From: an uncultured Candidatus Saccharibacteria bacterium | GTDB lineage: Bacteria > Patescibacteriota > Minisyncoccia > UBA6257 > GWB1-50-10 | DNA length: 50,826 bases | Direction: 5' to 3' | Assembly (NCBI GenBank): GCA_964639325.1 | Contig: CAZXDO010000006.1 | Span: 1 to 50,826 of the forward strand | Shown here: positions 4,582 through 50,826 of the stretch, piece after piece | Layout of the letters: every line of letters starts with the position of its first letter | Position numbering within the stretch: position 1 is the first letter of the stretch | Notes under the pieces: model-generated | The model's database searches: none | Seen by the model: only the letters and a program-made list of their open reading frames with translations | Told to the model about the DNA's origin: nothing | Position numbers and translations under genes: made by a program

Positions 4582-4593
4582 TTCAGTTAAAAA

Positions 4594-4642
4594 GTTATCC
4601 ACAACAACTTGGGGGTTCCCGACACCCCCAAGTTGGTTTTTT
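4594..4642. repeat. GC-hairpin / DnaA-box element, copy 2 (terminator-like)
   Basis: TTATCCACA 4595-4603. Stem CAACTTGGGGG 4605-4615, loop TTCCCGACA 4616-4624, stem CCCCCAAGTTG 4625-4635, then GTTTTTT. Confidence 0.9.
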
Positions 4643-11517: not shown

Positions 11518-11550
11518 TTTTCTCTATTGTTTTAAAAACACCTTTGTAAT

Positions 11551-11592
11551 CAACTTGGGGGTTCCCGACACCCCCAAGTTGTTGTGGATAAC
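11551..11592. repeat. GC-hairpin / DnaA-box element, copy 3 (box on the 3' side)
   Basis: Stem CAACTTGGGGG 11551-11561, loop TTCCCGACA, stem CCCCCAAGTTG 11571-11581, then T and TGTGGATAA 11583-11591. Confidence 0.9.
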
Positions 11593-11639
11593 TTGAAATG
11601 TTAATTGGTGTGGTTTGTTGTGAAAAATAGTGCTAATAA

Positions 11640-17261: not shown

Positions 17262-18512
17262 ATGAGACAATCTAACCTTTTCTTTAAGACACAAAAAGAT
17301 GATCCTAAAGGCGAGTTAGCAGTAAACGCCAAGCTTTTAATTAGGGCTAAATTTATTGATAAATTAATGGCCGGAGTTTTTTCTATGCTTCCTATGGGTT
17401 TTAGGGTTCGTGAAAAAATAATAAACATAATAAGGGAGGAAATGAATGCTGTAGGAGGTCAAGAGATTATTATGCCCGCCCTTCACCCTCGTTCTGTCTG
17501 GGAAGCCACTAATCGTTGGAACGGAATGAGTAGTGTTATGTATCAGTTTACAGATGAAAACGGAAAAGAATGGGGTCTTGGCCCAACTCACGAAGAGGTA
17601 ATTGCACCGTTAGCTAAATATGGTATAGATTCTTATGTTGATATGCCTAAATCCTTATACCAAATTCAAGTTAAATTTAGAAATGAAGAACGTCCCAAAT
17701 CAGGTCTTTTAAGGGGTCGGGAGTTTACTATGAAAGATCTTTACAGTTTTCATGCCGATGAAGATTCTCTTAATGAGTATTACGACAAAGTAACCGAAAG
17801 CTACCATAAGATATTTAAAAGAGTAGGTTTGGGAGATATTACTTATTTAACCTTCGCTTCTGGTGGTAGTTTTTCAAAATATTCCCACGAATTTCAAACG
17901 CTTTCTGAAATAGGTGAAGATACTATTTATGTATGTGAAAAATGTAATATTGCGGTAAATAAGGAAATTATAGACAAACAAGAAACATGCCCTAAGTGTG
18001 GCAATAAAAATCTTGCTGAAAAACGGGCTATAGAAGTAGGTAATATATTTAAACTTGGCACAAAGTTTTCCGATCCAGTTGGTTTAACTTACACTTCAGA
18101 ATCTGGAGAGGAGAAACCCGTAATAATGGCTTCTTATGGTATAGGGATTGAGAGATTGATGGGAACTATAGTAGAAATATTTCACGACGAAAAAGGTATA
18201 ATATGGCCTCAGTCGGTAGCCCCATTTCAGGTCCATCTTCTTATGATAGGGGAACCAACAGACAACCTTAAAAAATATACAGAAGAAATATATAAAAAAC
18301 TTGAAGATTCAAGCATAGAAACTTTATACGATGACAGGTCTGAAACATCGGCAGGGGAAAAATTTGCTGAAGCTGATCTTATAGGTATTCCTTGGCGATT
18401 GGTTATTAGTGAAAAAACTTTAAACGAAAACAAAGTTGAAATAAAACGGCGTGATTCTAAGGAGGAAAGTTTGGTTAGTTTAGAAGAAGCCATTAAAACC
18501 ATAAAAAAGTAA
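17262..18512 (+). CDS. proS: proline--tRNA ligase (bacterial type, no INS editing domain)
   Basis: MRQSNLFFKTQKD...LGPTHEEVI...YQIQVKFRNEERPKSGLLRGREFTMKDLYSFH... parallels bacterial ProRS. 416 aa with a CxxC...CxxC insertion (VCEKCN...CPKCGN). Confidence 0.88.
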   Translation: MRQSNLFFKTQKDDPKGELAVNAKLLIRAKFIDKLMAGVFSMLPMGFRVREKIINIIREEMNAVGGQEIIMPALHPRSVWEATNRWNGMSSVMYQFTDENGKEWGLGPTHEEVIAPLAKYGIDSYVDMPKSLYQIQVKFRNEERPKSGLLRGREFTMKDLYSFHADEDSLNEYYDKVTESYHKIFKRVGLGDITYLTFASGGSFSKYSHEFQTLSEIGEDTIYVCEKCNIAVNKEIIDKQETCPKCGNKNLAEKRAIEVGNIFKLGTKFSDPVGLTYTSESGEEKPVIMASYGIGIERLMGTIVEIFHDEKGIIWPQSVAPFQVHLLMIGEPTDNLKKYTEEIYKKLEDSSIETLYDDRSETSAGEKFAEADLIGIPWRLVISEKTLNENKVEIKRRDSKEESLVSLEEAIKTIKK

Positions 18513-19603: not shown

Positions 19604-20290
19604 ATGAAACCCACCACAATTATAACTACTTTTATAATAATTCTTCTTGTTGGTTTTATAGTTTTTTATGGCCAAACAAGTTTAAGTTCAACTTTTAACA
19701 ATGTAAAAGTATTTTTGGCAAGTTTTTCTTTTGCGGGGAAATGCGAAGATTGTGGATTATTAATTCAAGAAAATAAATATCTTAAATTTGAACTTCAAAA
19801 ATATAGAAACAGTAGCTCCGACGAAAGTGAAGGCGAGATAGCTAAAGTTTTTTCTCGTTACCCCTTTAATGATAGGGAATATATTGTTGTAAATCTTGGA
19901 AAAAATGATGGGATTAAGATTAATTCTCCAGTTTTAACACCTAGTAAATATCTTTTAGGTAAAGTTGTTTCAGTTTATGATAACCAATCTGAAATTGAAA
20001 CTATATTTAACCCTGAGTGGAAATCAAGCGTCGCCTTAAAAGTTCCCGAAATAAAAGCAGTGTTGAAAGGCGGGCAAGTTCCTAAGCTAGAGCTTATTTC
20101 TAAAGATTCCGAAATTAAAGAAGGTGATTTTGTTTTTAATATTTCCCCAGATTTTCCTTATGAAAAAATTATTGGAGAAGTTAAAAATATAAAAAAGAGC
20201 TCTGAAGAAACATGGTATACGGCTTTAGTTGAGATTCCTTACGGTATTGACGAAATTACAGAAGTTATCATTCTCAATGAATTTAAATGA
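19604..20290 (+). CDS. mreC: rod shape-determining protein MreC
   Basis: N-terminal TM helix, coiled-coil (LIQENKYLKFELQKYRN), beta-rich C-terminus with GDFVF. Position between mreB and mreD. Confidence 0.75.
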   Translation: MKPTTIITTFIIILLVGFIVFYGQTSLSSTFNNVKVFLASFSFAGKCEDCGLLIQENKYLKFELQKYRNSSSDESEGEIAKVFSRYPFNDREYIVVNLGKNDGIKINSPVLTPSKYLLGKVVSVYDNQSEIETIFNPEWKSSVALKVPEIKAVLKGGQVPKLELISKDSEIKEGDFVFNISPDFPYEKIIGEVKNIKKSSEETWYTALVEIPYGIDEITEVIILNEFK

Positions 20291-20336
20291 ACAAAACTTC
20301 TAAGCGTCGGTTCTTAAAATACAAAAATTTTGTTTT

Positions 20337-20807
20337 ATGGCAAATATGAACTCCATTACCAAAACATCAACTTTAATTTTTGTATTTGTTTTATTATTAC
20401 TTTTTCAAAGTAATCATTTTTTTGAAATAGAAAGTATTGTTCCAAACTTAACCCTCATTGCTTTCCTTATTTTATCCTTGAAAGAAAATGAAGGCTCAAA
20501 AATAGTTTTATTTATAGGAATTTTCCTTGTTGCGGTCAGTCTTTTATGGTTTTCTTTTTGGGTTTGGGGGGTAATTCTTATTTTTATTTTTGGAATTATT
20601 TCAAATTTTATTAGTAATTTTTTATCAGGAAATATTTTTATTGATTACTTTTTAGTTGTCGTTTTAGCTACTTTTCTTTTTTATGCTGTTTTTTATTTTA
20701 TTGGATCAAGTTTCTTTATTTGGTCTATTGTTTTAGGTGAGGTTTTTTATAATCTTATTTTAGGTGAGTTATTCCTCTTTCTTTTTAATGATTTTTTAAA
20801 AAAATAG
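20337..20807 (+). CDS. mreD: polytopic membrane protein, MreD-like by position
   Basis: 156 aa, about 5 hydrophobic helices, located between mreC and PBP2. The sequence alone is not diagnostic. Confidence 0.5.
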   Translation: MANMNSITKTSTLIFVFVLLLLFQSNHFFEIESIVPNLTLIAFLILSLKENEGSKIVLFIGIFLVAVSLLWFSFWVWGVILIFIFGIISNFISNFLSGNIFIDYFLVVVLATFLFYAVFYFIGSSFFIWSIVLGEVFYNLILGELFLFLFNDFLKK

Positions 20808-23240: not shown

Positions 23241-23244
23241 TTCA

Positions 23245-23510
23245 GCCCCCAGGATTTGAACTAGAATCAATTTAGCGAAAGCAATTTTGTTAATATTCAA
23301 GGCGCGAGGAGCGTGGGGTGTTAGATAACACGCGAGCGACGAGCAACGCAGAAGATAAACAAAATTGTTCCGCCCGAAGGGAAGCAAAATAATAAGCAAT
23401 TTCTTCGTTACTCCTCGTCAATGTATGCTCCGCATACACTTTCCTCGTCGTGTCTTGAAATTGCTTATTATTTTGCTTCTAAACTTAATTCTAGTTCAAA
23501 TCCTGGGGGC
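23245..23510. repeat. 266-bp element built from nested perfect inverted repeats (structured ncRNA or MITE-like element)
   Basis: Outer 23-bp IR 23245-23267 / 23488-23510. Inner 23-bp IR 23381-23403 / 23457-23479. 10-bp IR 23282-23291 / 23358-23367. Small hairpin 23423-23428 / 23432-23437. Confidence 0.85.
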
Positions 23511-23554
23511 GCTGTGTTATTATTGTTCTATAAATCTAATATATTTTAATAAAA

Positions 23555-33397: not shown

Positions 33398-33424
33398 AAA
33401 GCTCTAGAACATGGAGCTTGAGTC

Positions 33425-33512
33425 CGCAGACAGCAAGCATTTAAGACTTGCCGAGGATAATTGGGTGATTTTTTCACCCCATCTGTCTGCGTTAAAGGTC
33501 GCAGATTTTTTT
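33425..33512 (+). promoter_or_regulatory. ribosomal protein L10 leader-like structure with overlapping intrinsic terminator
   Basis: 9-bp closing stem CGCAGACAG 33425-33433 / CTGTCTGCG 33483-33491 encloses the hairpins GCAAG/CTTGC and GGGTGA/TCACCC. Terminator stem TCTGCG 33486-33491 / CGCAGA 33500-33505 is followed by T7 at 33506-33512. Confidence 0.6.
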
Positions 33513-33531
33513 ATTAACACCTAAATCAAAT

Positions 33532-34691: not shown

Positions 34692-34765
34692 GGGCACTTA
34701 GCTCAGCTGGCTAGAGCGCTGCCGTCACATGGCAGAGGTCACTGGTTCAAGCCCAGTAGTGCCCA
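34692..34765 (+). tRNA. tRNA-Val (anticodon CAC), no encoded CCA
   Basis: Hand-folded cloverleaf. Acceptor GGGCACT/AGTGCCC, D arm GCTC-AGCTGGCTA-GAGC, anticodon arm CTGCC-GTCACAT-GGCAG, T arm ACTGG-TTCAAGC-CCAGT, discriminator A. Confidence 0.9.
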
Positions 34766-34787
34766 CAAAATATTTCAAGGAATAATT

Positions 34788-34818
34788 CAACGTGGGGGTT
34801 CCCGACACCCCCAAGTTG
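34788..34818. repeat. GC-hairpin element, copy 4 (one stem mismatch, no adjacent box)
   Basis: CAACGTGGGGG 34788-34798, loop TTCCCGACA, CCCCCAAGTTG 34808-34818. The nearest TGTGGATAA is at 35000-35008. Confidence 0.85.
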
Positions 34819-34836
34819 TCGTCGTTTTACTCCTCC

Positions 34837-34904
34837 CCAGAAACCCTCGTTTTCTGGCGCTTCGCTGTTTTCCAACACGGGGAAAATACTCTTCCCCGAC
34901 CCCC
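34837..34904 (+). repeat. GC-rich two-hairpin repeat, element B
   Basis: H1 is CCAGAAA 34837-34843 / TTTCTGG 34851-34857. GCTTCGCT lies at 34859-34866. H2 is CGGGGAA 34878-34884 / TTCCCCG 34892-34898. CCCCGACCCC lies at 34894-34903. Same layout as 44659-44720. Confidence 0.75.
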
Positions 34905-35059
34905 TTTGTCGTTTAATAGCTTGGTGGTTATTTGCTAACTAATTCCTTTGTTATGTCTTCAGGAATAATGTTGTATTGTTAGAATTTCATATTAAACATT
35001 GTGGATAACTTATTTTTCTCCCATTAAGCTTGATCTAAGTTTTTTTCATTTTTGAAAAT

Positions 35060-35088
35060 TGACAAATTATTTATATTTTGGCATATTG
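35060..35088 (+). promoter_or_regulatory. candidate promoter of the zinc-ribbon orphan gene
   Basis: TTGACA 35060-35065, 17-nt spacer, CATATT 35083-35088. Confidence 0.45.
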
Positions 35089-39761: not shown

Positions 39762-39809
39762 TGGGGAGATGTGGATAATTATGTGGATATCTTTCAAATC
39801 TGTGGATAA
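39762..39809 (+). promoter_or_regulatory. array of same-orientation TGTGGATA boxes (DnaA-box-like, possible MraZ operator)
   Basis: TGGGGAGAT 39762-39770, TGTGGATAA 39770-39778, TGTGGATAT 39783-39791, TGTGGATAA 39801-39809. A further TGGGGATAA lies at 39642-39650. Confidence 0.6.
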
Positions 39810-44619: not shown

Positions 44620-44740
44620 TTTGTGATCCCAACCGGATATTTCACGTCGCTTCGCTCCCTGAAACCCCTCGGTTTCAGTGCTTCCGCCACGGGAAACTTC
44701 CGTTTCCCGACCCCTTCCCCGGTTCAAATCCTGGGTTCAA
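44620..44740 (+). repeat. GC-rich two-hairpin repeat, element A, bounded by a duplicated tRNA-Glu 3' end
   Basis: TTTGTGATCCCAACCGGAT 44620-44638 matches 44776-44794 at 18 of 19 nt. H1 is CTGAAACC 44659-44666 / GGTTTCAG 44671-44678. H2 is CGGGAAAC 44690-44697 / GTTTCCCG 44702-44709. Then CCCGACCCC and GTTCAAATCCTGGG 44722-44735. Confidence 0.8.
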
Positions 44741-44749
44741 AATAAAACA

Positions 44750-44767
44750 ACCCGCCTGACAGCGGGT
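44750..44767. terminator. bidirectional terminator hairpin between murF and tRNA-Glu
   Basis: ACCCGC 44750-44755 pairs with GCGGGT 44762-44767. A T-rich tract follows it on both strands. Confidence 0.55.
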
Positions 44768-44779
44768 AATTTTATTTTG

Positions 44780-44852
44780 TGACCCCAACCGGATTTGAAC
44801 CGGTGTTTCTGCCGTGAGAGGGCAGCGTCCTAAACCACTAGACGATGGGGCC
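44780..44852 (-). tRNA. tRNA-Glu (anticodon CTC), no encoded CCA
   Basis: The reverse complement folds as follows. Acceptor GGCCCCA/TGGGGTC, D arm GTC-TAGTGGTTTAG-GAC, anticodon arm CTGCC-CTCTCAC-GGCAG, T arm ACCGG-TTCAAAT-CCGGT, discriminator A. Confidence 0.9.
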
Positions 44853-45953: not shown

Positions 45954-46946
45954 ATGAATGAATTATTAATAATTTTAATATTTTTGGTTATCGCTGGTTT
46001 TGCTGGTGTATTTTGGATGTTTTTCCAAAAGAAGGATAAAGGATCTGATGATAAATCACTAATCATGCTCCAAAACCAAATAAATGAAATAAATAATTCT
46101 ATTCAAGACTCTGTTCAAAAATTAATAAGAGAATCTAGTGAAGTTAAAGAATCAAGTAAACAGGTTTTTGATGTAGCTGATCAGTTAAAGAATTTAGAGC
46201 AAGTTCTTAAAAACCAAAAAAGAAGAGGTAGTTTGGGTGAAGCCGGTTTAGAACTTGTCCTTTCTAATGTCTTGCCACCCGATGCCTATAAAATGCAATA
46301 TTCTTTTAAGGATGGAAGTATTGCTGACGCTGTTATTTTTACCAAAGAAGGTGTTATTCCGGTTGATGCAAAATTTTCTCTCGATAATTATATAAGACTA
46401 GTGAACGAAAAAGATGAAAACGAAAAAGAAAAATTAAATAAAGACTTCGTAAATGATTTAAAAAAAAGAGTTAATGAAACAGCAAAGTATATAAAACCTA
46501 AGGAAGGAACCTTGCCTTTTGCTTTTATGTACATTCCCGCAGAACCCATTTATTACGATTTATTGGTAAATGAAGTAGGTTTAGTTAAAGAAAACACCAG
46601 AAGCATTATTGAATACGCTTATAAAGACAAAAACGTAGTTATAGTTTCTCCAACTACTTTTTCTGCTTATTTGCAATCCGTCTTGTACGGTTTTAGAGCT
46701 TTTAGAATAGAAAAATCAGCCCAGCAAATAAGCAAAAATGTTGAAAATTTAAGACGTCATATAATAAGTTATGAAGAGTACTTAAATAAGTTAGGAGACT
46801 CTTTAGGCACCACTGTAAGCCATTACAATAGGGCCTATAAAGAATTAGGTAAAATAGATAAGGATATATTTAGAATTACCGAAAAATCCGCCGATACAAA
46901 TCCTCAAGAATTAGACAAACCTAAAAAAGAAGATTTCGATAAATAA
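45954..46946 (+). CDS. rmuC: DNA recombination protein RmuC
   Basis: N-terminal TM helix, coiled-coil, then RGSLGEAGLELVLSNVLPP...YSFKDGSIADAVIF...VIPVDAKF...AFMYIPAE. Confidence 0.85.
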   Translation: MNELLIILIFLVIAGFAGVFWMFFQKKDKGSDDKSLIMLQNQINEINNSIQDSVQKLIRESSEVKESSKQVFDVADQLKNLEQVLKNQKRRGSLGEAGLELVLSNVLPPDAYKMQYSFKDGSIADAVIFTKEGVIPVDAKFSLDNYIRLVNEKDENEKEKLNKDFVNDLKKRVNETAKYIKPKEGTLPFAFMYIPAEPIYYDLLVNEVGLVKENTRSIIEYAYKDKNVVIVSPTTFSAYLQSVLYGFRAFRIEKSAQQISKNVENLRRHIISYEEYLNKLGDSLGTTVSHYNRAYKELGKIDKDIFRITEKSADTNPQELDKPKKEDFDK

Positions 46947-46954
46947 TTTAAGCA

Positions 46955-47008
46955 GATAACCAACTTGGGGGTGTCGGGAACCCCCAAGTTGGTGTGGATA
47001 ACTTTTTT
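46955..47008. repeat. GC-hairpin / DnaA-box element, copy 5 (loop inverted)
   Basis: GATAAC, stem CCAACTTGGGGG 46960-46971, loop TGTCGGGAA 46972-46980, stem CCCCCAAGTTGG 46981-46992, TGTGGATAA 46993-47001, then CTTTTTT. Confidence 0.9.
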
Positions 47009-47026: not shown

Positions 47027-47707
47027 ATGAAAGAAGGTTTTTTAGACGAAAAATGGAAAAAACTTCTAAAGCTATCTAAGAAATTTAGATATGTTCCTTT
47101 TGTTGATTTTGTTTTAGTTTCAGGTTCTATGGCTATGGGAGAAGCAAAAGAAAATTCTGATTTTGATTTTATTGTTGGTTCCCGACAAGGACGTATTTTT
47201 ACCTCCCGCCAATTTACCGCCGGTTTTTTTGAATTAATTAGCAAAAGAAGAAAAAAAGACAGCAACGAGAAAGAAGCAAAAGATAAAGCCTGTTTTAATC
47301 ATTATGTTACTTCTAAAGGATATCGTCTTGATCCTCCGTATAACGAATATTGGATTTCTCTTTATCAAAAATTAGTCCCAGTTTATGGTGATCGTAAACT
47401 AATAGAATCTTTTCTAAGGGCTAATGATTGGGCGGGGGAGATAGAGATTGATTATAAATTATTATCTAATAAAAAAAATAGCTTAATTAAAAAAATCGGT
47501 GAGTTTTTCCTTAAGGGTAGATTAGGAAACTTTCTTGAAAGTAAGTTTAAAGAATACCAAGTTAAAAGAATTGAAAAAAATTTAAAAAAAACCAAAACTT
47601 ACAAACCTTTAATTAAATATGATGACACTGAACTTAGGTTTCATATAGATACTAGAAGAATAGAAGAGTGGATTGAAAATAATAAAAGTCGGGCCGCGGG
47701 GAGTTGA
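47027..47707 (+). CDS. nucleotidyltransferase-domain protein (Pol beta superfamily)
   Basis: LVSGSMAMGEAKENSDFDFIVGS is the GS...DxD minimal nucleotidyltransferase signature. The last 20 nt overlap tRNA-Pro on the opposite strand. Confidence 0.7.
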   Translation: MKEGFLDEKWKKLLKLSKKFRYVPFVDFVLVSGSMAMGEAKENSDFDFIVGSRQGRIFTSRQFTAGFFELISKRRKKDSNEKEAKDKACFNHYVTSKGYRLDPPYNEYWISLYQKLVPVYGDRKLIESFLRANDWAGEIEIDYKLLSNKKNSLIKKIGEFFLKGRLGNFLESKFKEYQVKRIEKNLKKTKTYKPLIKYDDTELRFHIDTRRIEEWIENNKSRAAGS

Positions 47708-47758
47708 ACCCCGGTCACACGCACCCCATGCGTGCATACTGCCGTTGTACTACGGCCC
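47688..47758 (-). tRNA. tRNA-Pro (anticodon GGG), no encoded CCA
   Basis: The reverse complement folds as follows. Acceptor CGGGCCG/CGGCCCG (C1-G72), D arm GTAC-AACGGCA-GTAT, anticodon arm CACGC-ATGGGGT-GCGTG, T arm CGGGG-TTCAACT-CCCCG, discriminator A. Confidence 0.9.
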
Positions 47759-47951
47759 GGAGCGAAGCAGAAATGCAAAAACGTTAGTTTTTGAATTTCT
47801 GATGAGCGATCGAGACGCAAACTTTGTTTACGGCCCGAAGTGAGGGAAAAGTATAAACGAAGTTTATGTTTTTCACGAACGCCCGGAGACGCAAACTTTG
47901 TTTACGGCCCGGAGCGAAGCAGAAATGCAAAAACGTTAGTTTTTGAATTTC
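47750..47951. repeat. direct-repeat block upstream of tRNA-Pro, incorporating the tRNA 5' end
   Basis: An identical 50-mer lies at 47750-47799 and 47902-47951. An identical 26-mer lies at 47811-47836 and 47885-47910. TACGGCCCG (complement of tRNA positions 1-9) occurs three times. Confidence 0.9.
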
Positions 47952-47978
47952 TAATAAAAAACCAGTTTCCATTATAAT

Positions 47979-48506
47979 ATGAAGAAAATTCTAAATCAAA
48001 AATTTTTCAACCGAGATACTCTTAAAGTTGCGGAAGAATTAATTGGAAAATATTTAGTTATAAAAAAAGGAAACATTAATAAATCAACAATGATTATTGA
48101 GGTAGAGGCGTATGATGGACCCAATGACAAAGCTTGTCATGCTTATAAAGGCAAAACAGAAAGAAATAAGGTTATGTTTGGCCCGCCCGGTTATTGGTAT
48201 GTATATTTAGTGTACGGTATGCATTGGATGCTAAATATTGTAACCGGTCCCGAGGGTTATCCGGGAGCAATTTTAATAAGGGGAGTAAAGGATATAGATG
48301 GACCGGGTAAATTAACAAAAAGTATGGGAATAAATAATCGCTTTAATAATAAACCCGCTAAAATAGAAACAGGGCTTTGGATTGAGGATAGGGGGGTAAA
48401 TATAAGAAAAAAAGATATTAAGAAAATACCTAGGATTGGAGTTGATTACGCTAAAGAGTGGGCCGATAAACCATATCGTTTTGTTCTTGATGAAAATAAA
48501 TTATAA
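47979..48506 (+). CDS. mpg: DNA-3-methyladenine glycosylase (MPG/AAG family)
   Basis: FFNRDTLKVAEELIGKYLV...VEAYDGPNDKACHAYKGKTERNKVMFGPPGYWYVYLVYGMHWMLNIVT. Confidence 0.88.
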   Translation: MKKILNQKFFNRDTLKVAEELIGKYLVIKKGNINKSTMIIEVEAYDGPNDKACHAYKGKTERNKVMFGPPGYWYVYLVYGMHWMLNIVTGPEGYPGAILIRGVKDIDGPGKLTKSMGINNRFNNKPAKIETGLWIEDRGVNIRKKDIKKIPRIGVDYAKEWADKPYRFVLDENKL

Positions 48507-48517
48507 TTGTTTAAATT

Positions 48518-49693
48518 ATGTCTATTCATACTCACTCCCACTTATTTCACGTATTTAAAAATAGGGAAATAGATTCTCTTTATTTTATGAACGCTTTGCA
48601 GATTTTTGCTACAAGCTTAGTAAATATATTTATACCAATCTATTTTTTTAAATTAGGTATTCCTATTTGGGCTATTATATTGTTTTATTTTTTATGGTCT
48701 GTTTATTTTATAGTTTTAAGTTATTCTTTACTTCCTCTTGTTCGTTATTTAAGTGACAAGATGATGATATTTTTAGGAATTCCTTTTTTAGTCACCGCCT
48801 TTCTTTTAGTTGACCAAATAAGCGGTTTAGGTTTGCTTTTCTTTATTGCTCCGGTCGCATTTTCTCTTTACGCTGTTTTTTTTAATATCGGCTCAAGTTT
48901 TGATTTTTCTAGATTTGCCGATAAAGAAGAAAGAGAAATAGAGGTTGGCATAGGTAATATGATAATGGAGTTTACTCGTTTTGCTAGTCCCTTTATCGGT
49001 GCCTTGATTATTGTCAATTCAGGATTTCACATAGCTATATTAATTTCTACTATTATTTTAATAATATCTGTTGTTCCTCTTATGTTTTTTTCAAGGAGAA
49101 GAAAAGTTTTTCAAGAAATTAACCACAAGGATATTTTTAAGGTTGTTAAAGAAAAAAGTTTTCAAAATTTTCACAAAGCTATGTTTGGTTATGTTACCGA
49201 AAAAATAAATACTACTACAATCTGGCCTTTATTTATTTTTGTTTCCTTGGGAAGTATTGAAATAGTGGGTGAGTATATTTCTTTAGGACTTCTTTTTGGT
49301 GCCATAGCTGCCTACTTTGCCGGGAAAATTTCTAACAAAGGAAAAACCTCTCTTCTTTTTACATTAACAGGAGTTGGCCAATCCATAATATGGTTTTTTA
49401 AAACATTGATTCAAAGTATCGGAGGAATAATAGGGTTGAATGTTGGCGGCTATATATTTAGAGATGCCGCTGTTTCTTCTATGAACAGCAGATACTATGA
49501 ACTTATTCAAGATAAAAAAGACAAGGGTAAGTATATAATGGCTCAAGAGATTTATTACAATTTTGCAAGAATAATTATTTACCCCTTTTTGATATTATGT
49601 GCCTTTATTTTATCTCTAAACACATTCTTTACCGTTTCCTTTATTATCGCCGGAATTTTATCTTTATTATTTGTATTTGCCGGTAAGAAATAA
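48518..49693 (+). CDS. polytopic membrane protein (transporter-like, about 10-12 helices)
   Basis: 391-aa hydrophobic ORF. MFS-like layout, but no diagnostic motif identified. Confidence 0.6.
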   Translation: MSIHTHSHLFHVFKNREIDSLYFMNALQIFATSLVNIFIPIYFFKLGIPIWAIILFYFLWSVYFIVLSYSLLPLVRYLSDKMMIFLGIPFLVTAFLLVDQISGLGLLFFIAPVAFSLYAVFFNIGSSFDFSRFADKEEREIEVGIGNMIMEFTRFASPFIGALIIVNSGFHIAILISTIILIISVVPLMFFSRRRKVFQEINHKDIFKVVKEKSFQNFHKAMFGYVTEKINTTTIWPLFIFVSLGSIEIVGEYISLGLLFGAIAAYFAGKISNKGKTSLLFTLTGVGQSIIWFFKTLIQSIGGIIGLNVGGYIFRDAAVSSMNSRYYELIQDKKDKGKYIMAQEIYYNFARIIIYPFLILCAFILSLNTFFTVSFIIAGILSLLFVFAGKK

Positions 49694-49763
49694 ATAAAAA
49701 AATAAATAAACATTTTCATGTTTATTTATTTAATTTTCTTGCAAGCAAGAATAAGTTTTATTC

Positions 49764-50045
49764 TTAACTTTTAAATTGTTTATCGTACCCTCTCCAAGAA
49801 TCAGCAACTGTTTTATCTGCATCATCAAGAAATGCTAAGACCTCTTCTCTGATTTGGGAAGAGGATATATCGCCGTCAATATCATCAATTATTTCATTCA
49901 CTTTACTAGAAATTTTTTCGGTTATTTCATTTATTTTTTCAAAATTCAACCCTGCTTCTTCAGCTGCTTTTTGTATTGCTTCTTTTATTTTTTCCGGATC
50001 AAAAGGTTCTTTTCGCCCGTCCTTTTTTATTACATTTTTAACCAT
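49764..50045 (-). CDS. stand-alone ATP-cone domain protein
   Basis: 93 aa. VIKKDGRKEPFDPEKIKEAIQKA...SSSQIREEVLAFL matches the ATP-cone pattern found in NrdR and ribonucleotide reductases. Confidence 0.7.
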   Translation of the reverse strand: MVKNVIKKDGRKEPFDPEKIKEAIQKAAEEAGLNFEKINEITEKISSKVNEIIDDIDGDISSSQIREEVLAFLDDADKTVADSWRGYDKQFKS

Positions 50046-50100
50046 ATTTTTAAATAAATATTACGCCCTTTATTTGTTCTCTTTAATTATATCACACACA

Positions 50101-50134
50101 AAAAAACCACCGGTCTTATTACCGGTGGTTTTTT
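50101..50134. terminator. bidirectional intrinsic terminator downstream of the RRM gene
   Basis: AACCACCGGT 50105-50114 pairs with ACCGGTGGTT 50121-50130, flanked by an A6 run and a T6 run. Confidence 0.7.
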
Positions 50135-50148
50135 GCAGTAATTATTAA

Positions 50149-50403
50149 TTACTCACTTTTTGGTCTGGCTTCATCAACAGTTAAAGTTCTGCCGTTGAAT
50201 TCCTTTTTATTCCATTCTTCAACAGCTTTACTTCCTTCTTCATCAGAAGACATTTCTACAAAACCAAAACCTTTGGAACGTCCAGTCATTTTATCAGTAA
50301 TAATATTAGCTGATTCTACAGTACCGGAGTTAGAAAAAGCTTCTTTAAGCTCATCCTCAGTAGTTTCGTAAGGCAATCCGCCTACAAATAATCTTTTACT
50401 CAC
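50149..50403 (-). CDS. RRM-type RNA-binding protein
   Basis: RNP2 LFVGGL and RNP1 KGFGFVEM. 84 aa. Confidence 0.9.
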   Translation of the reverse strand: MSKRLFVGGLPYETTEDELKEAFSNSGTVESANIITDKMTGRSKGFGFVEMSSDEEGSKAVEEWNKKEFNGRTLTVDEARPKSE

Positions 50404-50536
50404 TATTTTATTGTGATTTATTTTTTGAGTTCTAGCTCGTGCAAGGCGACCTTCGGGTCTTAACCCTTATTTCGAACTTGAGCCGCCTAAAAACGAGACG
50501 GAAAGATTCGAACACACTTTTTCACGAACATCAGGA

Positions 50537-50565
50537 AGTATATTTTATTTATGCCTGTTTGTCAA
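50537..50565 (-). promoter_or_regulatory. candidate promoter of the RRM gene
   Basis: On the minus strand, TTGACA (50565-50560), 17-nt spacer, TATACT (50542-50537). Implies a 5' UTR of about 125 nt. Confidence 0.5.
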
Positions 50566-50621
50566 TATGTTTGTATTTACTATTGCGAAATAAAAAGAAT
50601 ATAGGTAAAGTAATAATTGAT

Positions 50622-50692
50622 TGCCGGGTCGTCTAACGGTAGGACGCCAGGTTTTGGTCCTGGTAACGAGGGTTCGATTCCTTCCCCGGCAG
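50622..50692 (+). tRNA. tRNA-Gln (anticodon TTG), no encoded CCA
   Basis: Acceptor TGCCGGG/CCCGGCA (U1-A72, typical of bacterial tRNA-Gln), D arm GTC-TAACGGTAG-GAC, anticodon arm CCAGG-TTTTGGT-CCTGG, T arm GAGGG-TTCGATT-CCTTC, discriminator G. Confidence 0.9.
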
Positions 50693-50826
50693 CACGAATG
50701 AAATGAGTGATGACGGGTATGGATTCAAACCATTTTGCCCCGTGTTGGAAAGTATCTAAACCCACGGGTTTTCAAAGTCAGGGGGTCGGGGCAAAATATG
50801 TGTTTATGTGAGATTCCTTCCCCGGC
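50693..50826 (+). repeat. GC-rich repeat, element C, ending in a second copy of the tRNA-Gln 3' end
   Basis: 11-bp stem 50732-50742 / 50787-50797. Contains CCCCGTGTTGGAA and GGGGGTCGGGG blocks. GATTCCTTCCCCGGC 50812-50826 repeats 50676-50690, and the window ends inside it. Confidence 0.8.

Follow-up and report, generated by a model that had tools for sequence, protein, structure and literature searches.

Introduction

Integrative elements that target transfer RNA (tRNA) genes, namely islands and prophages with a tyrosine integrase as well as their remnants devoid of an integrase, such as CIMEs, enter the 3' end of a tRNA or transfer-messenger RNA (tmRNA) gene, supply a replacement for this end, and leave the original one behind as a downstream direct repeat starting from the T-loop. 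Here, we describe a small non-coding element with a closely similar layout from bacteria of the Candidate Phyla Radiation (CPR), three copies of which (E1, E2 and E3) are contained in a 50,826-nt stretch of DNA from an uncultured Candidatus Saccharibacteria bacterium (contig CAZXDO010000006.1 of assembly GCA_964639325.1; this whole stretch is referred to as the window). In comparison with the tRNA-targeting integrative elements, however, the present unit measures only 114–252 nt, has neither an integrase nor cargo, uses one core for dozens of targets, among them the end of an open reading frame (ORF), carries an inverted copy of its target, and shows covariation of the RNA type in its core. 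To our knowledge, neither the tiny unit nor the multi-target core, the inverted target copy or the RNA-type covariation has been described for att sites.

Small GC-rich hairpin repeats of AT-rich, reduced genomes constitute the second kind of related system. The GC clusters of yeast mitochondria are short GC-rich sequences which are reported to merge and shuffle into new combinations (PMC4478555), and repetitive and double-hairpin-forming elements (RHE/DHE) are found in the mitochondria of sponges and fungi (PMC2800124). Like the present element, these are GC-rich, non-coding, intergenic hairpins of small AT-rich genomes that are present or absent between close relatives, and shuffling of the GC-cluster type is also how the sequence blocks of the window had initially been seen. 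There is, however, no sequence relationship; the mitochondrial elements are simple palindromes without a multi-helix core spread over an entire radiation, and they are not reported at gene 3' ends together with direct and inverted target copies. Further similarity, in being non-coding, structured and multi-copy, 100–250 nt in length, and located in intergenic regions or at gene ends of reduced genomes, exists with repetitive extragenic palindromic sequences and bacterial interspersed mosaic elements (REP/BIME), with miniature inverted-repeat transposable elements (MITEs), and with the Rickettsia palindromic elements mentioned in PMC1166351 and PMC1779305. In contrast to these, the core family described here has no terminal inverted repeats of its own, as a MITE would, and no short target-site duplication of fixed length; its flanking repeats are copies of the target, and it spans many classes instead of one genus.

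Folded single-strand sites are a third point of reference, comprising attP of the CTX phage (a substrate of XerCD), attC of integrons, and the guide-plus-hairpin ends of IS200/IS605. As in these systems, an inverted, target-like hairpin could present a target duplex in single-stranded DNA, and a conserved hairpin is found beside an internal stretch that is complementary to the target at its flank. While those systems are bound to one fixed target (dif, attI) or make use of a 4–5-nt guide, the complementarity seen here extends over 15–25 nt and is different from site to site. An IS200/IS605-derived palindrome-associated element would be expected to have subterminal hairpins, no target duplication and a Y1 transposase in the genome; two conserved hairpins are contained in the present core, and long target duplications occur as well. 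Thus, the element combines tRNA-end integration with a duplicated 3' end, on the one hand, with the small GC-rich hairpin repeats of AT-rich reduced genomes, on the other hand, and differs from both in its multi-helix core, radiation-wide spread, many targets and inverted target copy.

Much of bacterial diversity belongs to the CPR, whose members possess tiny genomes and are considered poor in mobile elements and in known non-coding RNAs. An element of approximately 100 nt that is conserved from Saccharibacteria to Parcubacteria, occurs in several copies per genome, and is not contained in Rfam would be either an unrecognised structured RNA or a small insertion element of an unrecognised type, and would in both cases extend the knowledge of these organisms. 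In the literature searched, there was no description of it, but only of analogues. Since Saccharibacteria can be cultivated with their hosts, both its expression and its mobility are testable.

The Conserved Core and Its Distribution in the CPR

A search pattern derived from E1 and E2 (GGGGTCGGG and CCCGTGNNGGAA, separated by 4–18 nt) was applied to contigs from one genome per species and matched at least 120 loci in these species-representative genomes. Among the matches listed, about 94% belong to Patescibacteria, comprising Saccharibacteria, many Parcubacteria lineages, Paceibacteria and Minisyncoccia, while a few from high-GC actinobacteria look like chance matches. The reverse-complement pattern returned nothing comparable from viral contigs, and no E-like matches were found among 2.9 million of these. 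The family is, thus, not confined to the genome of the window, but spread across the CPR.

The pattern matches keep a fixed order of parts, and copies from 19 further CPR genomes could be aligned with E1 and E2 column by column. The core is 75–100 nt long and is composed, in this order, of GGGGUC, a hairpin designated P1, GUGNNGGAA, an optional mini-hairpin (often GCGAAGC), a hairpin designated P3 with the invariant sequence AAACC-GNG-GGUUU, and GGAGCG. For the alignment of E1, E2 and the 19 further copies, RNAalifold predicts two helices, in which 10 of the 17 predicted pairs are compensatory. The covariance model R1, built from the same set of sequences, recognises E1 and E2 with E-values of 1e-15 to 1e-18 and detected 99 copies when run over 100 loci. 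In these 99 matches, 94.5% of the cells are paired and both partners vary in 13 of 17 pairs; the covariation score amounts to 0.415, in comparison with 0.139 for shuffles (reached by 0 of 500) and with at most 0.124 for slid partners, in an alignment which was fitted to R1 and, therefore, leans towards structure. On the tRNA-sense strand, G.U outnumber A.C pairs 29 to 11, and the P1 loops are often GNRA-like (GGGA, GGTA, GGAA). On this basis, E1, E2 and E3 are almost certainly members of one conserved, structured family that extends over the CPR.

Rfam 15 contains no family covering the element, as seen from scans of the window at gathering score and E <= 5 and of 31 CPR loci with copies at gathering score. 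These scans returned only tRNA, tmRNA, one group I intron and a sub-threshold L10 leader, and Rfam detected no other RNA beside those copies that are not linked to tRNAs. The group I intron (70 bits; L039, 2115–2346) is contained in one of the fetched CPR loci and is unrelated to the element. A derivation of P1 from a degenerate tRNA T-arm came into consideration because the tRNA-Glu 3' end on the viral contig L003 has the same shape as the first hairpin of the core; it was rejected, given that neither the stem and loop lengths (12–18 nt between the fixed parts) nor the covariation are those of a T-arm.

Cassette Architecture at Gene 3' Ends

Copies of the element are located 3' of tRNA genes, tmRNA genes and some protein genes, on the strand of the respective gene. 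In 53 of 118 copies, a tRNA or tmRNA end lies 23–119 nt upstream, always in the same orientation (53/53) and involving 28 anticodons plus tmRNA, while a calculation based on the tRNA density at these loci predicts about 1.5%. The tRNA association that had been noted for the window, thus, holds for the family. Occasionally, a copy stands between two tRNA genes of one operon, such as in L060 and L073, where the order is tRNA-Thr(GGU), element, tRNA-Thr(CGU).

The usual arrangement starts with the 3' end of the gene (X) and continues with a terminator hairpin, an inverted copy of the gene end (anti-X), the core, and a second direct copy (X'). Of the 53 tRNA-linked cases, 44 have an inverted copy of the tRNA 3' end before the core and 46 a direct copy after it; the duplications are approximately 14–25 nt long and variable, and the linker frequently contains a terminator hairpin with a T-run. 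Copies located away from tRNAs have the same layout with hairpins or a ribosomal-protein ORF end in the place of X; in one recurrent group, X consists of the last 17–21 nt of an S9-like ORF, including its stop codon. The arm 5' of the core is part of a hairpin of about 75 nt in 86% of the tRNA-linked and 65% of the unlinked copies, compared with 34% of control positions. Where X and X' differ from each other, anti-X agrees with the proximal X at 38 positions, compared with 13 at which it agrees with the distal X' (17 copies versus 3). X, terminator and anti-X, therefore, form the unit that is maintained, while X' is a drifting remnant, in agreement with the comparison made for E2 below. Within 2.5 kb of the 118 copies, only housekeeping protein families recur (1,052 neighbouring ORFs clustered), and no cargo or integrase was found between X and the core in any of them.

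The Three Copies in the Window

E2 has the complete cassette layout on the strand of its upstream gene. The core is of the canonical form (44650–44722, minus strand; 66.7 bits with R1; fold z = -3.5 to -3.8) and lies downstream of, and on the same strand as, tRNA-Glu (44779–44852, minus strand; ARAGORN and Rfam). The proximal X is the 3' end of this functional tRNA (44779–44794, minus strand; GTGACCCCAACCGGAT on the plus strand), as placed by ARAGORN, the Rfam tRNA model and alignment. It is followed by a linker (44740–44778) that reads as a bidirectional terminator hairpin (ACCCGCCTGACAGCGGGT, with A and T runs on either side) and by anti-X (44719–44739, minus strand), an imperfect inverted copy of the tRNA 3' end (CCGGTTCAAATCCTGGGTTCA on the plus strand) which includes GTTCAAATCCTGGG. 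Anti-X matches the reverse complement of the tRNA-Glu 3' end at 20 of 24 positions, with a 3-nt gap, and, in the minimum-free-energy fold, is base-paired with that end. Beyond the core, the displaced copy X' (44623–44638, minus strand) is identical to the tRNA-Glu end at 15 of 16 positions (z = 9 versus shuffles). It is situated 3 nt past the stop codon of a Mur ligase gene, corresponding to the place where the intact tRNA-Glu starts in a sister species that has the same gene order (79% identity in RmuC and 96% in GreA). In that species (L025), the beginning of tRNA-Glu lies 5 nt past the stop codon of the Mur ligase gene, whereas the same spot in the window is occupied by the partial copy; therefore, 155 nt comprising terminator, inverted copy, core and direct copy have been inserted at E2. 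The linker came with the insertion, since nothing intervenes between stop codon and tRNA-Glu in L025.

E3 is a diverged copy with a core (50701–50784, plus strand; 28.3 bits, E ~1.5e-6) that was not part of the R1 training set and is located downstream of, and on the same strand as, tRNA-Gln (50622–50693, plus strand). The 5' strand of its P1 reads GACGGG, the P1 loop carries a 21-nt insert, and an additional GGGGGTCGGGG follows the core at 50782–50792. The proximal X (50676–50694, plus strand; GATTCCTTCCCCGGCAGCA) represents the tRNA-Gln 3' end from the T-loop on, and the direct copy X' (50812–50826, plus strand) is cut by the end of the window, within which 15 of 15 positions match (z = 10). 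Three contigs of the same species (L009, L011 and L013) extend X' to GATTCCTTCCCCGGCAGCA, identical at 19 of 19 positions, and continue with a clean terminator hairpin. X and X' are, thus, both present, while anti-X is not evident. In the alignment of strain L009 with the window, 32 nt of E3 are missing (50702–50733, plus strand); the copy is broken in this strain, because the lost segment holds the 5' strand of P1. A reading of E3 as a circular permutation of E1 was discarded, as the covariance model aligns E3 in the normal order on the plus strand and the trailing GGGGGTCGGGG is an extra partial copy.

E1 (34828–34911, minus strand; 57.1 bits with R1, in whose training set it is included) encloses the interval 34837–34904 that had drawn attention originally, and consists of GGGGGTCGGGG, hairpin P1, CCCCGTGTTGGAAAA, a small hairpin CAGCGAAGCGCC, and hairpin P3 (CAGAAAACGAGGGTTTCTG). 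It is contained in a lineage-specific segment of about 243 nt (34819–35061), which extends from a 33-nt hairpin after tRNA-Val (34692–34766, plus strand) to the conserved promoter ATTGACAAAT of the next gene. A same-species contig (L026) is identical to the window at this segment. In the sister species (L029), tRNA-Val, a degenerate 33-nt hairpin and the promoter ATTGACAAAT are adjacent, and the ~243 nt with E1 are absent.

Overall, E2 represents the complete form, E3 has diverged and is in decay, and in E1 a bare core is embedded in a lineage-specific segment. No R1 match was obtained in any of the sister-species loci scanned. E2, the E1-bearing segment and a separate palindromic element between greA and lysS are all absent from the orthologous sites of the sister species; because of these empty sites, we regard it as very probable that the members of the family are insertions.

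Contig ends in five assemblies fall inside elements; L001 corresponds to window positions 47923–50714, L028 starts at 34868, L027 starts at 34982, and the window itself ends at 50826. Breaks in E1, E3 and the repeats near tRNA-Pro, thus, recur across independent assemblies, by which the elements fragment metagenome assemblies; in addition, the partial tRNA copies can mislead annotation.

The GC-Rich Blocks of the Window

The element had been approached through short GC-rich blocks, reported to recur in different combinations and orientations at six loci, beside four tRNA genes, inside the greA-lysS element and in the leader of a gene for an RRM protein. All of these blocks are present, with three coordinates to be shifted by one (47759 instead of 47758, 47911 instead of 47910, and 47869 instead of 47868) and with two further copies in coding sequence, both on the minus strand (CCCGACCCC at 17713 and TTTTTCACGAAC at 17406), that had been missed. 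Taken singly, the blocks do not exceed chance; all-against-all blastn of the 25 intergenic regions gave 27.6–29.5 bits, whereas the top scores of local-composition shuffles have a mean of 28 and a maximum of 31.5, and only the 33-nt hairpin family lies far above these shuffles. Joint sharing of blocks was evaluated against dinucleotide shuffles. E1 and E3 have 26 nt in common in blocks of at least 10 nt (p <= 0.001), and a 14-mer is common to E2 and the greA-lysS element (p = 0.002). Sharing of k-mers between E1 and E2 is marginal (p ~0.025), the homology of these two copies being nevertheless proven by the column alignment and the covariance model. For GGAGCGAAGC, which is common to E2 and the tRNA-Pro region, the uncorrected value is p ~0.04, and its two copies at tRNA-Pro are parts of a single 53-nt direct repeat (family D15). 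Sharing of TTTTTCACGAAC between the tRNA-Pro region and the RRM leader is not significant, and its copy at 50518 falls into RRM-leader sequence that is kept in the sister species.

Most blocks find a defined place in the element. TTCCAACACGGGG is the 3' strand of P1 with the adjoining junction, CCCCGACCCC is the 5' strand of P1, and GCTTCGCT and GGAGCGAAGC are small hairpin modules of the GCGAAGC type. GTTCAAATCCTGGG, which had been listed as a block of the family, is not a core block, but a terminal repeat resembling a tRNA T-arm; it represents the tRNA-like inverted copy and forms, in addition, the end of the greA-lysS palindrome, which is a separate element. The repeat-family reading of the initial annotation was, thus, partly right. 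This is a genuine repeat family and not a set of independent regulatory sites. The modules are not freely shuffled, however; E1 and E2 hold the blocks in the same order as the ~100 copies in other genomes, and the apparent reshuffling is due to the strand of each copy, to the optional small hairpin with its variable position, and to the diverged E3 with its extra partial GGGGGTCGGGG. Nor do all six loci belong to one family, given that two of them (the repeats upstream of tRNA-Pro and the RRM leader) are not members. The same holds for the 33-nt hairpin, whose loop one of the blocks was said to resemble; this likeness is unsupported, because R1 matches none of the hairpin copies.

Proposed Mode of Insertion and Alternative Explanations

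The reading which we consider probable is that of a non-coding CPR element, present in three copies in the window, that represents an insertion cassette carrying the end of its target. The core would be the last part of this cassette at the 3' end of a transcription unit, placed before the displaced X', and integration would proceed by recombination inside the short stretch of identity X. By this route, the target gene would keep a working 3' end (X) and gain a terminator, while its old end would be pushed downstream as X'. In a single-stranded intermediate, the X–terminator–anti-X hairpin may restore the target as a duplex, and the core may be recognised by machinery supplied in trans, such as a recombinase, a replication or priming factor or an RNA-binding protein, unless it is itself a functional RNA. 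Among the possible mechanisms, recombination within X appears the most likely to us, but is offered tentatively and with less than an even chance. If true, the cassette would carry a 15–25-nt guide to its own target, repair the gene that it interrupts and add a terminator. The layout suggests harmless entry into essential genes and perhaps amounts to target recognition by 15–25 nt of base pairing with no protein in cis; guided insertion of this kind would be of interest for genome engineering.

Several points weigh against the cassette. E1 is composed of the core only, is convergent with tRNA-Val and has no flanking X, anti-X or X'; its segment may have arisen by insertion in the window or by deletion in the sister species. 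About 45 of the 118 copies have flanks other than tRNA, and not all of these possess the full layout. Neither a circular or excised form nor a recombinase was identified, so that mobility is deduced only from presence and absence and from the duplicated target ends. Ordinary site-specific recombination can hardly account for a single family with dozens of different X sequences; each change of target needs a new X together with a matching anti-X. Finally, the strong conservation of sequence across CPR classes, the GNRA-type P1 loops and the G.U excess are as compatible with a functional RNA as with purely selfish DNA, or even more so.

The latter points lead to the main rival, according to which the core would be a functional structured RNA of the 3' regions of tRNA, tmRNA and ribosomal-protein genes, possibly a processing or stability element, a read-through sensor or an insulator. 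Selection would then keep the X–terminator–anti-X hairpin and the core, and the insertion-like features would be how copies arise. Such a role is favoured by the fact that distant CPR classes share strong covariation and invariant nucleotides in single-stranded parts, and also by the predominance of G.U over A.C, the GNRA-like P1 loops, the strict co-orientation with the upstream gene, the maintained complementarity of anti-X to the proximal X, and the copies lying between two tRNAs of one operon (L060, L073). However, the terminator hairpin and T-run that often separate gene and core should limit co-transcription, the sister species does without E2 and E1, E3 is decaying and broken in one strain, and X', including the duplicated stop codon, drifts and has no obvious RNA function. 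An RNA role as the whole explanation is, on this balance, possible and would be our second choice; the two readings overlap, in that a domesticated mobile element could be both. E2 and E3 might also be scars of integrase-borne islands or prophages that entered the tRNA T-loop and subsequently lost their interior, with attL and attR left behind in the manner of a CIME and with the blocks as integrase arm sites. The direct repeats of the tRNA 3' ends do run from the T-loop to just past the discriminator (15/16 in E2, 19/19 in E3), which is reportedly the classic att position of tyrosine integrases, and a terminator comes after the reconstituted tRNA, an arrangement known from many attP regions. 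Still, no full-length parent was found, and the 118 copies, with units of 114–252 nt, contain no cargo or integrase between X and the core. The same core stands behind 28 tRNA anticodon types, tmRNA, an ORF end and plain hairpins, as would not be the case for a single integrase family, and its covariation is of the RNA type. Considering also the lack of E-like matches in the 2.9 million viral contigs, we regard this origin as very unlikely.

A retroelement resembling short interspersed nuclear elements, with a reverse transcriptase acting in trans, is hardly more plausible. Target-primed synthesis would yield the duplications, which are indeed long and variable (~14–25 nt), and snap-back priming on the terminator hairpin would yield anti-X; X, terminator and anti-X form one long palindrome centred on the terminator loop, as expected from snap-back extension, and CCA terminates the distal copy, but not the gene, in six cases. 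Encoded CCA is, however, not clearly enriched at the distal copy (10/41, compared with 6/41 at the gene and ~23% in background tRNA genes), the neighbourhood contains no recurrent reverse transcriptase, and anti-X follows the proximal instead of the distal copy. Least credible of all is that the blocks are chance matches of GC-rich hairpins in an AT-rich genome. Single blocks do lie within the range of local-composition shuffles, and TTTTTCACGAAC, as well as GGAGCGAAGC in the tRNA-Pro region, is not significant after multiple-test correction. Against this stand the joint sharing between E1 and E3 (p <= 0.001), the R1 E-values (~1e-6 for E3, on which the model was not trained, and 1e-15 to 1e-18 for the other two copies) and the approximately 100 homologous copies in other genomes. 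Chance is, thus, already refuted for E1, E2 and E3, stands for the block in the RRM leader, and may or may not account for the tRNA-Pro block.

Returning to the cassette, it is well conceivable, albeit short of an even chance, that the family constitutes a protein-less, mobile or semi-mobile CPR unit of 115–250 nt with a templated sense and antisense copy of the target 3' end, or otherwise a new class of structured RNAs at the 3' ends of stable-RNA and ribosomal-protein transcripts.

Neighbouring Elements

In the scan of the window, R1 matched neither the greA-lysS element nor the tRNA-Pro repeats, the RRM leader or the 33-nt hairpins. The greA-lysS element (23243–23512) is palindromic, approximately 270 nt in size (inverted repeat I21) and strongly folded (z = -9.5), with an internal perfect stem of 24 bp. 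Its terminal inverted repeats GCCCCCAGGATTTGAACTAGAA of up to 29 nt (23245–23273 and 23482–23510) resemble a tRNA T-arm plus acceptor strand. Its point of insertion coincides with the T-run of the greA terminator, and the element is absent from the sister species, as seen in L032/L034, where the greA terminator is intact, and in L035. Despite the MITE-like inverted repeats, it does not qualify as a MITE, as no target duplication was found at its junctions. While it has 14 nt in common with anti-X of E2, its interior differs, and it is a separate insertion.

The 33-nt GC-rich hairpin (CAACTTGGGGG-TTCCCGACA-CCCCCAAGTTG, with the loop inverted in some cases) occurs in five copies (1416–1468, 4590–4642, 11536–11594, 34773–34825 and 46946–47006); positions 35000–35008, 39770–39778 and 39801–39809 are also listed for this family. 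Usually, it is joined to a TTATCCACA box, which corresponds to the DnaA-box consensus and has 7 occurrences versus 0.42 expected. Hairpin and box recur in three short metagenome contigs, with compensatory changes in the stem and without E blocks, whereas the hairpin core had 0 matches in genome contigs and 0 in viral contigs. As a relative of the element, this hairpin was rejected in view of the lacking R1 match.

Upstream of tRNA-Pro (47688–47759, minus strand), there is a nested tandem repeat (47751–47955) of two 53-nt and two 46-nt units, each with a 9-nt copy of the tRNA-Pro 5' end. The modules are homologous in the sister species, including one small hairpin with a compensatory change, and one 74-nt unit is missing in the same-species strains L011 and L014. 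Possibilities for these repeats are a tRNA leader or the promoter region of a glycosylase gene. The gene for the RRM protein has a long, GC-richer 5' leader (50404–50540, minus strand), which is conserved in the sister species (L015, 4740–4940) and may be autoregulatory. Neither the tRNA-Pro repeats nor the RRM-leader block were retained as members of the family, for want of an R1 match; because of their conserved counterparts in the sister species, both are older local features. About 6 kb past the right end of the window, the same-species contig L009 contains a tRNA-Ser gene followed by a GC-rich island of small hairpins with cores of the GCTTCGC/GCGAAGC type (20108–20350), in which no match to R1 or to the E blocks was found.

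General Features of the Window

The window represents an entire contig of 50,826 bp. It has a GC content of 33.5%, and the majority of its genes are on the plus strand. The gene content is typical of a small AT-rich genome, comprising greA, lysS, the L10/L12 genes, mreB, the Mur ligase gene, rmuC and the gene of the RRM protein. Homologues of RmuC place the window in Patescibacteria, with Jorgensenbacteria as the best named relatives (~63% identity). Look-ups of exact proteins gave no match for the first gene of the window or for the 159-aa greA ORF. No integrase or recombinase domain was detected among the 20 window proteins scanned. The sub-threshold match to the ribosomal protein L10 leader (33406–33520; 32.7 bits versus a gathering score of 44) is located at the expected place upstream of the L10 gene. 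The L7/L12 ORF (34072–34665) is listed with 197 amino acids, of which two Pfam L12 domains match residues 82–196 only; they are preceded by a long, repetitive stretch rich in Glu and Lys.

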